In this document: in pieces, positions 7,469 through 33,095 of the stretch
Numbering within the stretch: the stretch's first letter is position 1
Layout: the number at the start of each line of letters is the position of its first letter
Origin: a virus
Taxonomy: Duplodnaviria > Heunggongvirae > Uroviricota > Caudoviricetes
IMG/VR virus record: IMGVR_UViG_2698536610_000002
DNA: 57,929 bases
Strand: one strand, 5' to 3'
Notes under the pieces: generated by a model
Told to the model about the DNA's origin: nothing
What the model saw: the letters and a program-made list of their open reading frames with translations, nothing else
The model's database searches: none
Translations under genes and position numbers: made by a program

Positions 7469-8398
7469 ATGGCAAACACTGCTGAGATATTCAATTTTCC
7501 TGTGCCGGATGTGGCACAAAAGGAGCCGCGCGTGGCAGATCTCGATGATGGTTATACGCGCATTGCAAATGAGTTGCTGGAAGCTGTGATGCTGGCCGGA
7601 TTAACACAGCACCAGCTTCTGGTCTTCCTGGCTGTCATGCGCAAAACATATGGCTTTAATAAAAAACTGGATTGGGTGAGCAACGAGCAACTTTCCGAGT
7701 TGACCGGGATATTGCCGCACAAGTGTTCTGCTGCAAAAAGTGTTCTGGTAAAGCGTGGGATTTTTATTCAGAGCGGGCGGAATATCGGCATTAATAATGT
7801 GATCAGTGAATGGTCAACATTACCCGAATCAGGTAAGAAAAATAAAGTTTACCTGAAAGAGGTAAATTTACCTGAATCAGGTAAGAAAAGTTTACCCAAA
7901 TCAGGTAAAGGCGTTTACCCGAATCAGGTAAACACAAAAGACAAACTAACAAAAGACAATATAAAACCTTTTTCGTCCGAGAATTCTGGCGAATCCTCTG
8001 ACCAGCCAGAAAACGATCTTCCTGTGGTGAAACCGGATGCTGCAATTCAGAGCGGCAGCAAGTGGGGGACAGCAGAAGACCTGACCGCCGCAGAGTGGAT
8101 GTTTGACATGGTGAAGACCATCGCGCCATCAGCCAGAAAACCGAATTTTGCAGGGTGGGCTAACGATATCCGCCTGATGCGTGAACGTGACGGACGTAAC
8201 CACCGCGACATGTGCGTGCTGTTCCGCTGGGCATGCCAGGACAACTTCTGGTCCGGTAACGTGCTAAGTCCGGCCAAACTCCGCGACAAGTGGACCCAAC
8301 TCGAAATCAACCGTAACAAGCAACAGGCTGGCGTGACAGCCGGAAAATCAAAACTCGACCTGACAAACACTGACTGGATTTATGGGGTGGATTTATGA
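7469..8398 (+). CDS. O: Replication initiator O
   Basis: Start set at MANTAEIFNF (lambda O starts MTNTAKILNF); N-terminal VADLDDGY...KTYGFNK conserved; iterons embedded in the coding sequence. Confidence 0.9.
   Translation: MANTAEIFNFPVPDVAQKEPRVADLDDGYTRIANELLEAVMLAGLTQHQLLVFLAVMRKTYGFNKKLDWVSNEQLSELTGILPHKCSAAKSVLVKRGIFIQSGRNIGINNVISEWSTLPESGKKNKVYLKEVNLPESGKKSLPKSGKGVYPNQVNTKDKLTKDNIKPFSSENSGESSDQPENDLPVVKPDAAIQSGSKWGTAEDLTAAEWMFDMVKTIAPSARKPNFAGWANDIRLMRERDGRNHRDMCVLFRWACQDNFWSGNVLSPAKLRDKWTQLEINRNKQQAGVTAGKSKLDLTNTDWIYGVDL
7820..7932 (+). repeat. ori iterons (four ~18-19 bp direct repeats) inside O, followed by an AT-rich tract
   Basis: ttacccgaatcaggtaag / tttacctgaaagaggtaaa / tttacctgaatcaggtaag / tttacccaaatcaggtaaa / tttacccgaatcaggtaaa, then aaaagacaaactaacaaaagacaatataaaa. 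Confidence 0.85.
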
Positions 8399-16706: not shown

Positions 16707-17000
16707 TTATTGTGAGCAATACACCCGCGCTTCCAGCGGAGTATAAATGCCTAAAGTAATAAAACCGAGCAATCCATTTACGAATGTTTGCTGGGTTTCT
16801 GTTTTAACAACATTTTCTGCGCCGCCACAAATTTTGGCTGCATCAACAGTTTTCTCCTGTCCAATTCCCGAAACGAAGAAATGATGGGTGATGGTTTCCT
16901 TTGGTGTTACTGCTGTCGGTTTGTTTCCAACAGTAAACGTCTGTTGAGCACATCCTGTAATAAGCATTGCCAGAGCGGCAGAAAACAACATTTTTTTCAT
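16707..17000 (-). CDS. bor: Bor lipoprotein (serum-resistance family)
   Basis: Start at MKKMLFSAALAMLITGC; 97 aa matching Bor/Iss family from memory. Confidence 0.9.
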   Translation of the reverse strand: MKKMLFSAALAMLITGCAQQTFTVGNKPTAVTPKETITHHFFVSGIGQEKTVDAAKICGGAENVVKTETQQTFVNGLLGFITLGIYTPLEARVYCSQ

Positions 17001-17560: not shown

Positions 17561-17759
17561 GAGGTTGCCCCGTATTCAGTGTCGCTGATTTGTATTGTCT
17601 GAAGTTGTTTTTACGTTAAGTTGATGCAGATCAATTAATACGATACCTGCGTCATAATTGATTATTTGACGTGGTTTGATGGCGTAGATGCACGTTGTGA
17701 CATGTAGATGATAATTATTATCATTTTGCGGGTCCTTTCCGGCGATCCGACAGGTTACG

Positions 17760-17771
17760 GGGCGGCGACCT
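17760..17771. other. cosN cohesive-end site of the prophage (gggcggcgacct) with flanking cosQ/cosB
   Basis: ...cgatccgacaggttacg gggcggcgacct cgcgggttttcgctatttatgaaaattttccggtttaagg... identical in layout to the lambda cos region; Nu1 starts 178 nt downstream. Confidence 0.9.
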
Positions 17772-17948
17772 CGCGGGTTTTCGCTATTTATGAAAATTTT
17801 CCGGTTTAAGGCGTTTCCGTTCTTCTTCGTCGTAACTTAATGTTTTTATTTAAAATACCCCCTAAAAAGAAAGGAAACGACAGGTGCTGAAAACGAACTT
17901 TTGGGCCTCTGTCGTTTCCTTTCTCTGTTTTTGGCCGTGGAATGAACA

Positions 17949-18494: not shown

Positions 18495-21475
<2,981 letters not shown>

Positions 21476-21552
21476 AACCCTTGCTGCGTCTGGAATGTCG
21501 TTTTCCATGCTTTTGATGACCGTTCATCACCCTTCCAGTTTTTCGCGGTTTT

Positions 21553-21604
21553 GTGTATTGCAATGTGTATTGCAAATTGGCGATCGGGATGGGTGTGTAT
21601 TGCA
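21553..21604 (+). repeat. Three direct copies of gtgtattgca next to the left junction (candidate integrase arm-type sites)
   Basis: gtgtattgca at 21553-21562, 21565-21574, 21595-21604, just upstream of the island int start (21624). Confidence 0.5.
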
Positions 21605-21623
21605 AATCTCTTGAGGGCTTTTA

Positions 21624-22865
21624 ATGGCTATTGAAAACAAACTCAGTGACAAACTGTTAAAGAGTCTTGTCGGAAAACGGCAGGACAAACAAAAAACAAT
21701 AGCGGATGGGCGCGGGTTGTCTGTGCGTGTAAGCATGGTTGGGGGGATCAGCTTTGTTTTTTACTATCGTCTTGGTGGCAGGGAATCCCCTCCGGTATGG
21801 CTTACACTTGGTCGCTATCCTGACATGTCTCTTGCAACGGCCAGGCGCATGCGTGATCAGTGCCGTGAATGGCTAGCTGAAAATCTGGACCCCCGCAGGC
21901 AAATAAAACTTGCTGCCGAAAAAACTATGCAACCAGTGACCGTAAGGGATGCGCTGTTTTACTGGTACGACAATCACGCCACAACAGCCAGAAAAGAGCA
22001 TGAATATTTAATAAAACGATTTGAAAAGCATATCTTCCCCTATATCGGTGATATGGCTATAGAACAGTGCAAATTACACACATGGCTTACCGTCTTTGAC
22101 AGGATCAAAAAAAATGCGCCTGTTATGTCTGGTGCAATTTTTCTTGATATCAAACAGGCGTTGCGTTTTTGTCGCGTCAGGCAATACATCGCGTGCGATC
22201 CCTTTGGAGATATTAACGTAAGTTATGTCGGGCGCTCATCCGGTATAAGGGATCGCGTTCTTAATATCAATGAAACCGCTGATGTATGGTCTTATGCTTA
22301 CGGTAATAATTTGCTAACTCTGTCATCAATATATAACCGAAGAATAATGGTTATCTGCCTGGTGTTTGGTTGCCGACAGCAGGAGGCGAGGCTATCCACC
22401 TGGGACGAATGGGATTTAAAAAACTGGGTATGGACAGTCCCAAAAGAGCACAGCAAAAACAAGGAGGCTATAGTAAGGCCTGTTCCTGACGGAATAAAAC
22501 AATGGATCGTTAATCTTTACGCAGAAACAAAAAATCGCGGTTATGTTGTCGGTTGTGCTTTGCAAAGGGCGACAATAACAGGGGCTGCAAACAGAATATG
22601 CAGGCGTCTTGGTCATGATACTAATGGCTTGTGGTGCATACATGATTTCAGGCGCACATTTTCCACTACGCTTAATGATATGGGGGCGGATCCTTATATT
22701 GTCGAACTTCTTTTAGGTCATAAAGTGAAAGGGGTTGCTGGTGTTTACAATAAAAGCAGGCATATAAAGAAAAAACTTGAGGTGCTTAATATGTGGGTTA
22801 ATTACCTTAATACGATAGCAGGATTTAACAACAACGTTATCGAGCTTAATAAAGAGGTGGTGTGA
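21624..22865 (+). CDS. int: P4-type tyrosine integrase
   Basis: 413 aa; N-terminal arm-binding-like region GRGLSVRVSMVGGISFVFYYR; C-terminal HDFRRTF...LLGHK...GVYNKS catalytic motifs. Confidence 0.9.
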   Translation: MAIENKLSDKLLKSLVGKRQDKQKTIADGRGLSVRVSMVGGISFVFYYRLGGRESPPVWLTLGRYPDMSLATARRMRDQCREWLAENLDPRRQIKLAAEKTMQPVTVRDALFYWYDNHATTARKEHEYLIKRFEKHIFPYIGDMAIEQCKLHTWLTVFDRIKKNAPVMSGAIFLDIKQALRFCRVRQYIACDPFGDINVSYVGRSSGIRDRVLNINETADVWSYAYGNNLLTLSSIYNRRIMVICLVFGCRQQEARLSTWDEWDLKNWVWTVPKEHSKNKEAIVRPVPDGIKQWIVNLYAETKNRGYVVGCALQRATITGAANRICRRLGHDTNGLWCIHDFRRTFSTTLNDMGADPYIVELLLGHKVKGVAGVYNKSRHIKKKLEVLNMWVNYLNTIAGFNNNVIELNKEVV

Positions 22866-22866
22866 T

Positions 22867-23124
22867 ATGGCAATTTATTCTCTTGTTGATGAAAACGATT
22901 TGCGCACAATGAAGGACATTGATCGGTTCATTCGTGAAAAAGAGTGCATAGCACTTACCACGCTGGCAAACTCAACACGCTGGAAAATGGAGCAGGCAGG
23001 TAAATTCCCGCGACGTATCAAGATCGGTGAACGTGCTGCAGGGTATCGACTTTCAGAGGTTCAGGCATGGATCCGTGGTGAGTGGCATCCTGGATGGAAA
23101 CCTGGAAAAACAAAACAGCAATAA
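22867..23124 (+). CDS. alpA: AlpA-family transcriptional regulator/excisionase-like protein
   Basis: 85 aa; KFPRRIKIGERAAGYRLSEVQAWIRGEW pattern typical of AlpA. Confidence 0.7.
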   Translation: MAIYSLVDENDLRTMKDIDRFIREKECIALTTLANSTRWKMEQAGKFPRRIKIGERAAGYRLSEVQAWIRGEWHPGWKPGKTKQQ

Positions 23125-27445: not shown

Positions 27446-27454
27446 TTTTTTGTA

Positions 27455-27700
27455 AAAGCCATCTACCCCATCTACCTGAACAAAATAAACTCATATTATT
27501 CAACATGATAAGTGGGTATAGGGCTAGGTAGAAGGCTAATAAAAGCTCTCTACCTCTTCTACCTGATTTTATCAGTTTCAGGTAGCAGGGTAGACGGCAG
27601 GTAGAGGAGTCAAAAAGCTATCTACCCGCTGAAAGCCGCGCCATTACTGACATGATGAGCATTCGGGTAGATGGGTAGAGGGGGGGAGGCACAACTAAAA
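27455..27700. repeat. Iteron cluster (repeated ctacc/ggtag-containing motifs) downstream of the primase: candidate island ori
   Basis: catctaccccatctacctg, gctaggtagaagg, ctctacctcttctacctg, caggtagcagggtagacggcaggtagagg, ctatctacccg, cgggtagatgggtagaggg. Confidence 0.6.
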
Positions 27701-30469: not shown

Positions 30470-30525
30470 TGAAATTAGGGCCCGTTCTGGCTGGCGGGTC
30501 CTTTCCGGCGATCCGGTAGGCTACG

Positions 30526-30537
30526 GGGCGGCGACCT
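30526..30537. other. Second cosN (gggcggcgacct) belonging to the island
   Basis: gggtcctttccggcgatccggtaggctacg gggcggcgacct cgcgggttttcgctatttatga: near-identical to the helper cos for ~75 nt, then diverges in the cosB region. Confidence 0.8.
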
Positions 30538-30685
30538 CGCGGGTTTTCGCTATTTATGAGCCTTTTTCGGGTGCTGGTGGTGGTTTTGTTGTTCGCTCTA
30601 TCTCTATGAATAAAAAGGAAAAGATAAAGCCAATACACCAACCTGAAACATTACTTAAGTGGGGATATTGATGAAATCGCACCTG

Positions 30686-31521: not shown

Positions 31522-31879
31522 GATAACGCAAAATTGCGCTGGCTGACTTGTTGCATTGCAAAAAGTTAAGCAGGAAGGCACGGCCTGTAAGATGGGATGC
31601 AGTAAGTAGTTCAAGGCTACCTTGTGCTGGCACGCACAGTTAAGCCGTCGGTGCTGGATATCCCCCACTGGGGGAAAAGCTGGCTACATCCCTCACATCT
31701 GAGGACTGATAACGCGACATTGCGCTGGCTGGCAAAGTGCAAAATTGCACGATGGCCTAACCCATTGATTATTTCGAAAACCTGCAATGCAGGAAATCGG
31801 GGAAGTAAGCCTAAGCTATTAATTGTTTCGAAAACCCCCATTGGGGGATGTCGGGAAAGTAAGACTAACCCATTGATTC
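31522..31879. repeat. Non-coding array of repeated hairpin-containing modules
   Basis: gataacgc(a/g)a(a/c)attgcgctggctg twice (31522, 31708); tandem ~55-bp units tt(a/g)tttcgaaaacc[hairpin]g(a/g)tcggg(g/a)aagtaag(c/a)ctaa at 31770 and 31825; cccattgatt flanks at 31761 and 31870. Confidence 0.55.
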
Positions 31880-32220
31880 TTCCACAATCCTCAATTTGAG
31901 GAGGCCGGAACGTCTACATAGCTGCATCGCCGTAATGATGATTCAGCCCACCAGCCAAATCAGCACAGCAACGACAGAATAGCCCGACACAGAAAAACCA
32001 CGAATATGGGGTTTTTGTTATGACATGGTCATGATGACCACTCATACAAAACAGGTAAAGCCCACCAGCCTGATTAAAGGTTAACCGGAAAAAAGCCAGG
32101 TATCCAATCTCGATATGGGGATCCCTATATCGACATTAACGCCCACTAAAACTGTGCATATATGCATAGAAAAAGCATCCACCAGCTTTATGACGGATGC
32201 CGCTCATCTTATAAATAATC

Positions 32221-32242
32221 GTGTATTGCAGTGTGTATTGCG
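32221..32242 (+). repeat. Two copies of gtgtattgc(a/g) next to the right junction
   Basis: gtgtattgca 32221-32230 and gtgtattgcg 32233-32242, same motif as at the left end. Confidence 0.5.
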
Positions 32243-32321
32243 ACTCCTTTAAACGATAGGTCTGAGCATTCGTAATGTACTGTTTTTAAATTTTATTTTT
32301 TCCTGTCTTTTCATAAAGGCG

Positions 32322-33095
32322 ATGTATGCCGCCACCATTGAGAGTGAGCTGGATACGCAGTCAGCGATGGATTTTATTCTGGGCGCGAACAGTCAGGAGC
32401 AGCGGGAAAGGCTGACCGGCTGGATTGGTGAAATTGCCGCGTATTACGCCGCAGCACCGGTCCGTCTGGGAGGCGCAAAAGTGCCGCACCTGATGCCGGG
32501 GGACTCACTGAACCTGCAGACGGCTCAGGACACGGATAACGGCTACTCCGTGTTTGAGCAGTCACTGTTGCGGTATATCGCTGCCGGGCTGGGTGTCTCG
32601 TATGAGCAGCTTTCCCGGAATTACGCCCAGATGAGCTACTCCACGGCACGGGCCAGTGCGAACGAGTCGTGGGCGTACTTTATGGGGCGGCGAAAATTCG
32701 TCGCATCCCGTCAGGCGAGCCAGATGTTTCTGTGCTGGCTGGAAGAGGCCATCGCTCGCCGCGTGGTGACGTTACCTTCAAAAGCGCGCTTCAGTTTTCA
32801 GGAAGCCCGAAGTGCCTGGGGGAACTGCGACTGGATAGGCTCCGGTCGTATGGCCATCGATGGTCTGAAAGAAGTACAGGAAGCGGTGATGCTGATAGAA
32901 GCCGGACTGAGTACCTACGAGAAAGAGTGCGCAAAACGCGGTGACGACTATCAGGAAATTTTTGCCCAGCAGGTCCGTGAAACGATGGAGCGCCGTGCAG
33001 CCGGTCTTAAACCGCCCGCCTGGGCGGCTGCGGCATTTGAATCCGGACTGCGACAATCAACAGAGGAGGAGAAGAGTGACAGCAGAGCTGCGTAA
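32322..33095 (+). pseudogene. B: Portal protein B, C-terminal 257 codons, separated from the N-terminal part by the island
   Basis: MYAATIESELDTQSAMDFILGANSQEQRERLTGW... continues lambda gpB exactly from the residue after ...SAIVKA. Confidence 0.85.

Follow-up and report, generated by a model that had tools for sequence, protein, structure and literature searches.

Probable arm-type sites of a satellite integrase

Five co-oriented repeat units near the two ends of a 10.9-kb phage satellite very probably are the arm-type sites of the satellite's own integrase. The window, i.e., the whole stretch of viral DNA analyzed here (57.9 kb), contains exact copies of GTGTATTGCA at positions 21553-21562, 21565-21574, 21595-21604, and 32221-32230, all on the plus strand, and a fifth plus-strand copy at 32233-32242 (GTGTATTGCG) with one mismatch. 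The initial annotation had recognized the same 10-bp repeat near both ends of the island, and five copies are indeed present; it had treated all of them as identical, which holds for four but not for the copy at 32233. Its placement of three copies 20-70 bp upstream of the integrase gene (int) agrees with the measured distances, as these 10-mers end 20 bp and start 71 bp before the ATG at 21624, and the two copies described as lying about 80-100 bp inside the right junction were located 74-102 bp inside the right identity block.

The true repeat unit comprises 12 nucleotides (TGTGTATTGCAA), and consecutive units start 12 and then 30 bp apart at the left end and 12 bp apart at the right end. 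On the int-proximal arm, P'1 (21552-21563) and P'2 (21564-21575, 12 bp after P'1) are the two halves of a doubled motif, which is followed by a third, single site, P'3 (21594-21605), 30 bp after P'2; all three have the sequence TGTGTATTGCAA. The end of P'3 lies 19 bp before the int start codon and adjoins the ribosome-binding site (RBS). The far-end arm carries P1 (32220-32231; cGTGTATTGCAg) and, 12 bp after it, P2 (32232-32243; TGTGTATTGCGa, one mismatch), and all five units are on the plus strand. Elsewhere in the 57.9 kb, matches to GTGTATTGCA with at most one mismatch are restricted to unrelated single copies at 16715 (minus strand) and 52175 (plus strand). The number of copies alone is unexceptional: 16 of 100 shuffled sequences reached seven hits with at most one mismatch, and 18 other 10-mers are present at least four times in the window. 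Their clustering is exceptional, since none of 200 dinucleotide shuffles contained any 10-mer three times within 60 bp, and a chance origin of the cluster was rejected because the shuffles did not reproduce it. The repeat is a real and very probably functional feature.

The gene next to the three int-proximal sites codes for a tyrosine integrase of the HE-PICI clade (21624-22865, plus strand; Pfam Arm-DNA-bind_3, E=3e-17, and Phage_integrase, E=1.7e-14). Residues 7-94 (21642-21905) constitute an arm-type DNA-binding domain (PF13356), which is the proposed reader of the motif. The arm-binding domains in PDB entries 3ju0 and 3jtz match residues 11-107 (E about 1e-6), and the AlphaFold model of the N-terminal domain consists of a beta-sheet and a helix (pLDDT 86-89) with predicted strands at residues 24-27, 32-36, 42-48, and 58-65. 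Directly after int follows a gene for an AlpA-family protein (22867-23124, plus strand; Pfam Phage_AlpA, E=5e-14), which probably is a directionality factor or an activator.

The satellite and its helper prophage

The island is a helper-embedded PICI (HE-PICI). It interrupts the helper prophage's lambda-type portal gene, with which it is co-oriented (the Nu1-A-W-B strand), and measures 10,900 bp from identity block to identity block. The left attL/attR identity block, AAGGCGAT at 21416-21423, marks the crossover region within the portal gene, and the right block, also AAGGCGAT, is located at 32316-32323 (both on the plus strand). The interrupted gene, a cognate of gpB, is split into a 5' ORF at 20594-21423 and a 3' ORF at 32322-33095, both on the plus strand. 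Uninterrupted portal genes match the window up to position 21428, and thousands of E. coli genomes carry the 5' part with the annotation phage portal protein. The junction between element and portal gene was found in 63 of 5,426 complete E. coli genomes and the uninterrupted portal gene in thousands, and Phage_portal_2 fragments occur on both sides of the homologous elements in two of the related loci (L001 and L004). Apart from the integrase and AlpA, the element encodes a Bro-N protein, a D5_N/DUF5906 primase, an SSB, gpE-like capsid and gpD-like decoration proteins, a second AlpA-like protein, and a Nu1-like small terminase. A complete lambda-type cos copy within the satellite (30494-30560) is near-identical to the cos site of the helper (17728-17794), including GGGCGGCGACCT; it lies directly upstream of the Nu1-like small terminase gene, and the same 65 bp of cos also match positions without annotation in thousands of E. 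coli genomes, K-12 among them. Iteron-like repeats, both direct and inverted (AAAAGCnnTCTACC...), lie directly downstream of the primase gene, at 27454-27632, and probably represent the replication origin of the satellite.

Joining of 32312-32323 to 21424-21432 yields the reconstructed attP core CATAAA-GGCGA-TTTATG, a perfect inverted repeat at the crossover, of which the attB in the intact portal gene contains an imperfect version. The elements CATAAA and TTTATG are probable candidates for the core-type sites of the integrase, and the core AAGGCGAT with these flanks is unrelated in sequence to the arm motif. Between the core and the int-proximal sites, a palindrome (TGATGAccgtTCATCA; 21514-21529, plus strand) is partly conserved in the portal-site subclade. 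As a candidate site for an accessory protein, such as AlpA or a host bending protein, it is only a lead. For the IHF consensus, inspection by eye revealed a perfect WATCAANNNNTTR in the relatives L006 and L007, located between core and proximal sites, and none in the window.

Agreement with the published HE-PICI motif

The motif and its geometry are already known. HE-PICIs were described by Tommasini, Mageeney and Williams (2023, NAR Genom Bioinform 5:lqad036; PMC10111431), who reported that this integrase clade inserts at 14 sites within late genes of prophages and that a doubled motif, tgTGTATTGCantgTGTATTGCa, occurs in two co-oriented copies, one located 81±2 bp upstream of the attP centre and the other 132±2 bp downstream of it. 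According to these authors, the motif is unique to HE-PICIs and does not resemble IHF sites, and its binder was left undecided among the integrase arm domain, which was named first, AlpA, and a further DNA-binding protein of unknown identity (PMC10111431). In the window, positions 21552-21575 match tgTGTATTGCantgTGTATTGCa, with its tandem TGTATTGC cores, exactly, and positions 32220-32243 deviate by one mismatch at a less conserved position. As in the published elements, the copies are co-oriented on both sides of the attP centre. The downstream distance amounts to 132.5 bp (from the block centre at 21419.5 to the motif start at 21552) and the upstream distance to 77.5 bp (from the motif end at 32242 to the block centre at 32319.5), or 78-100 bp depending on the reference point; from doublet to doublet, the reconstructed attP of the window spans 232 bp. 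The gene order int-alpA-Bro-primase-late zone, embedded and co-oriented in a prophage late gene, is shared as well, with int and alpA (21624-23124) residing in the same-strand portal gene. Because the window fits the published geometry, the finding is a rediscovery. It differs from the published description in two respects. In the window and its portal-site relatives, the int-proximal pair is followed 30 bp downstream by a further, single copy, which is unmentioned there; and the motif sequence is unique to HE-PICIs, but the 12-bp doublet architecture is common to hpt-side, fis, and other PICIs, in which it has other sequences.

Conservation in class A relatives

A single-protein locus search of genome contigs yielded no relative; an alignment-based search, which proved necessary, returned 80 loci with integrases 31-70% identical. 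The initial annotation had named the absence of the repeats from related elements as an observation that would speak against its reading; in the comparison of att arms, the repeats were present in the relatives. The motif is invariant in 15 elements, referred to as class A, whose integrases are 49-88% identical to that of the window and whose flanking DNA has diverged. They stem from Escherichia, Edwardsiella, Serratia, Erwinia, Citrobacter, Klebsiella, Kosakonia, Cedecea, Rahnella, Kluyvera, and Arsenophonus. In a graded series of eight integrase homologues from Edwardsiella, Serratia, Erwinia, Citrobacter, E. coli, Klebsiella, and metagenomes (88, 81, 77, 70, 69, 55, 54, and 51% identity), the motif is located directly upstream of int in every case. 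P'1 is invariant in the six portal-site elements and in all 15 class A loci, P'2 is conserved likewise, and the co-oriented tandem pair at the far end (P1/P2) is kept in L001, L004, and every class A locus in which that end was reached. The targets in the series of eight homologues are two different portal genes, the capsid E gene, and a protease-capsid gene. When the att regions are aligned, invariance is essentially confined to the motif copies, and five different crossover sequences all go with a distance of 231-235 bp from doublet to doublet in the reconstructed attP. The third, single copy is found in all six portal-site elements 30 bp downstream (31 bp in L009) and adjoins the int RBS; P'3 occupies the same offset in L001, L002, L004, and L009 and has one mismatch in L013. 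In other subclades, the int-proximal pair ends about 12 bp before the int start codon.

Two loci from Serratia quinivorans (L002 and L003) consist of int-alpA and the three arm sites in a truncated portal gene, where MFS transporter and type VI secretion genes have taken the place of the helper late region and of all other parts of the satellite. They are decayed remnants that retain intact motif copies. Another copy of the 8-nt motif core, TGTATTGC, is located within the int gene of the window (22180-22189, minus strand; int +557) and is shared with L001 and L004. It may reflect mere coding conservation; phage P4 likewise has an annotated arm repeat inside int.

Doublet architecture in sister integrase clades

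At integrase identities of at least 38%, nearly all loci contain a doublet with a 12-bp period 30-60 bp upstream of int, whose sequence differs by integrase clade. Six motif classes were distinguished: class A (tGTGTATTGCA, 15 loci), class B (cGGTGTATCA, 15 loci), class C (GGTGTAGTC, 13 loci), class D (TGTATAAACA, 19 loci), class E (GGTGGGGTA, 5 loci), and class F (GGGGTACATG, 4 loci), where the counts refer to the loci scored in the association tests; the full class call comprises up to 23 loci in class D and 6-7 in class F. Far-end copies outside class A were found in L028, L029, L071, and L076, which thus have doublets on both arms. In L029, a fis PICI, and in L071, which lies next to fis, the far-end doublets are at int +9348 and +6307, respectively. 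The fis-site PICIs are said to lack the HE motif (PMC10111431); these two carry, on both arms, a doubled motif that is analogous but differs in sequence. Since sister clades share the doublet layout with other sequences, the sequence of the motif is specific for HE-PICIs and the architecture is not. An intact class B attP is present in L076 (3480-3760), with two GGTGTATCA pairs 232 bp apart around ATGAAACAT. This locus is a 12.7-kb contig binned as a Bacillota MAG, which probably is an excised circular enterobacterial PICI that was mis-binned.

The link between motif class and integrase clade also bears on the view that a host or helper factor recognizes the repeats or that they have a part in replication or packaging, as iterons or as accessory sites of pac or cos. 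Short tandem repeats would suit such roles, and the published account allows for an unknown binder (PMC10111431). The motif does not resemble IHF sites (PMC10111431), however, and it changes with the integrase clade even within the same host genera, which argues against a host factor site; this explanation is extremely unlikely. A function as iterons or packaging site was rejected, as the satellite has separate ori-like repeats (27454-27632) and its own cos copy (30494-30560).

Integrase or AlpA as the reader of the motif

The initial annotation had assigned the repeats to the integrase or to its directionality factor, with AlpA as the probable candidate for the latter. The first part, arm-type sites, is supported by the Arm-DNA-bind_3 domain, the fixed spacing in attP, the invariant sequence blocks, and the layout shared with P4. 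Binding by AlpA, either as an excisionase that bends the arms or as an activator of int-alpA, would be an alternative, since alpA directly follows int and is kept in all class A elements; an activator of the int promoter would need a site before the gene. Tandem direct repeats are also bound by winged-helix proteins of the AlpA type, which a 12-bp period would suit. Moreover, members of the AlpA family are excisionases or regulators that can act on int promoters, and AlpA was reported to activate the int promoter in some Gram-negative PICIs (PMC10111431, introduction); P4 Vis and TorI have been described in similar terms as excisionases or regulators (PMC2951348).

The motif class, however, follows the N-terminal domain of the integrase and is uncoupled from AlpA. 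Among pairs of loci whose integrase N-domains are at least 80% identical, 134 of 134 share the motif class (AUC 0.985), whereas only 111 of 249 pairs with AlpA at least 80% identical do so, both figures being uncorrected for phylogeny. The AlpA cores of L012 (class B) and L037 (class D) are 100% identical, but their integrase N-domains are 62% identical and their motifs are different. Conversely, the class B motif is common to L012, L029, and L039, although the AlpA proteins of the latter two are only 49% identical to that of L012, and L018 keeps the exact class A motif despite a diverged AlpA recognition helix. Within class A, where AlpA is 56-79% identical to that of the window in local alignments (74-90 residues, without L018) and 49-76% in global alignments, int and alpA are always adjacent and co-inherited, and the discrimination between the two proteins therefore rests on the sister classes B and D and on L018.

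The arrangement of the copies also differs from that of directionality factor sites. Known sites of this kind, such as those of lambda Xis, sit on one arm. Here, a pair on the far arm is combined with a pair plus a single copy on the int-proximal arm, the copies are outermost on both arms instead of lying on one arm between the arm sites and the core, and their sequence does not follow AlpA identity; the same layout in P4 is annotated as arm repeats. Taken together, it is very unlikely that the repeats are sites of AlpA and not of the integrase, and the AlpA site proper is more likely to be found elsewhere. Assignment to the integrase is consistent with its separate N-terminal arm domain, with repeats on both arms that are unlike the core, and with the covariation of motif and N-domain.

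In L006, L007, and L010 (class A, integrases 51-55% identical), the N-domain is 64-69% conserved, compared to 46-53% for the rest of the protein, a pattern that would match an unchanged arm motif combined with changed core targets. The six motif classes correspond to six N-domain signatures, a qualitative assignment from class consensus sequences. The residues that distinguish the classes (30, 44-48, and 55-60) are located in or beside the predicted strands 42-48 and 58-65. When residues were strictly required to be class-specific and at least 85% conserved within all six classes, none remained, and a mutual-information filter retained position 57 only; the signatures are therefore described qualitatively.

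Comparison with P4, lambda, and KplE1

The closest parallel in layout is phage P4, which has a P4-family integrase with an arm-binding N-domain. In its sequence record, the core is flanked on either side by co-oriented, 12-bp tandem pairs annotated as 'attP arm sequence repeat' (TGGGGGCATA), of which the int-proximal pair is placed 16-39 bp upstream of the int start; the overall layout is shared by the window. P4 differs in the motif sequence, in the distance from doublet to doublet (about 209 bp versus 232 bp in the window), in an extra inverted copy over the int start, and in the position of vis, which is not adjacent to int. The target of P4 is a tRNA-Leu gene, unlike the phage late gene targeted in the window. 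In lambda, attP contains the arm sites P1, P2, P'1, P'2, and P'3, two on one arm and three on the other, and a heterobivalent tyrosine integrase, which bridges arm and core, binds them with its N-terminal domain. The window shares the arrangement of two plus three arm sites with lambda, where, however, the sites of the P arm point the opposite way to the P' sites and int is oriented differently relative to attP. Sites for Xis, IHF, and Fis have been mapped in lambda, whereas no counterpart was identified in the window.

By analogy to lambda and P4, the attP of the excised circle would contain, in this order, P1-P2, about 94 bp, AAGGCGAT, about 138 bp, P'1-P'2, P'3, and the int start. Each integrase protomer would place its N-terminal domain on one TGTGTATTGCA arm unit and its core-binding and catalytic domains on the core. 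Such bridging of arm and core may lead to a tetrameric recombination complex that performs integration into, or excision from, the helper portal gene.

The position of P'2 and P'3, which directly abut the int RBS, suggests an effect on transcription in addition. In KplE1 (CPS-53), which encodes IntS and TorI, attL overlaps the region upstream of int, so that the arm sites double as negative operators, and IntS was reported to repress its own gene at such sites; the P4 integrase, too, was reported to repress its own gene by binding arm sites (PMC2951348). Bound integrase in the window might likewise damp transcription that enters int-alpA, a possibility that we rate somewhat below even. A mapped promoter overlaps the sites in KplE1, whereas in the window the arm sites abut the int RBS and a scan of positions 21400-21700 found no sigma-70-like promoter and no terminator. 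The latter result is compatible with read-through of helper late transcription into the satellite, which has been proposed for HE-PICIs (PMC10111431) and by which int in the window is perhaps reached, in a further difference from KplE1.

The three int-proximal copies could even be regarded mainly as a transcriptional operator of int-alpA, with the far-end pair being incidental. The end of P'3 19 bp before the ATG, the position of the pair about 12 bp before the ATG in other subclades, and the precedent of negative autoregulation in KplE1 and P4 (PMC2951348) would fit this explanation. It is extremely unlikely, however, because the far-end pair is equally conserved and at a fixed distance from the core and no sigma-70-like promoter was found in 21400-21700. 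Operator function is better understood as a secondary role of the same integrase sites than as a rival to their role as arm sites.

Possible implications for satellite excision and target switching

As arm-type sites of the integrase, the motif copies would be part of the machinery that allows the satellite to live inside an essential late gene of its helper, to leave it precisely, and to restore the portal gene. The identity of the reader matters for the timing of excision and for the way in which an integrase clade gains new late-gene targets. A more comprehensive, tentative reading, which is rather unlikely to hold as a whole, would combine a fixed arm scaffold, an integrase-occupied gate on read-through, and a clade-specific doublet code. 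The integrase N-domain together with the doubled motif spanning about 232 bp would then let a clade switch among helper late genes through core recognition alone. The int-proximal sites including P'3 would gate read-through from the helper late operon into int-alpA, which, if true, would set a delayed timing for satellite excision and hence for repair of the portal gene. Finally, each clade of P4-like and PICI integrases would have its own 12-bp doublet 'code', legible from the beta-sheet of the N-domain; if so, arm specificity would be predictable and swappable. Relative to the published work, the comparative evidence for the integrase over AlpA is a modest addition, and the motif can now be seen as one dialect of a doublet architecture common to P4 and many Gram-negative PICIs. 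This contribution leaves the picture of the field unchanged.

Other repeats in the window

Two further repeat arrays were noted. Within the satellite, three tandem 54-nt repeats (31755-31916; 100, 78, and 61% identity) each contain a small hairpin whose stem changes in a compensatory manner (CCTGCAATGCAGG, CCCCCATTGGGGG, and CCTCAATTTGAGG); an Rfam search of the island, these repeats included, matched no RNA family. In the helper prophage, four copies of AATCAGGTAA at 7827-7931 are arranged in palindromic units of the type TTACC...AATCAGGTAA. This array, possibly an origin or an operator array, is the only other 10-mer cluster in the window that was never reproduced by the shuffles.
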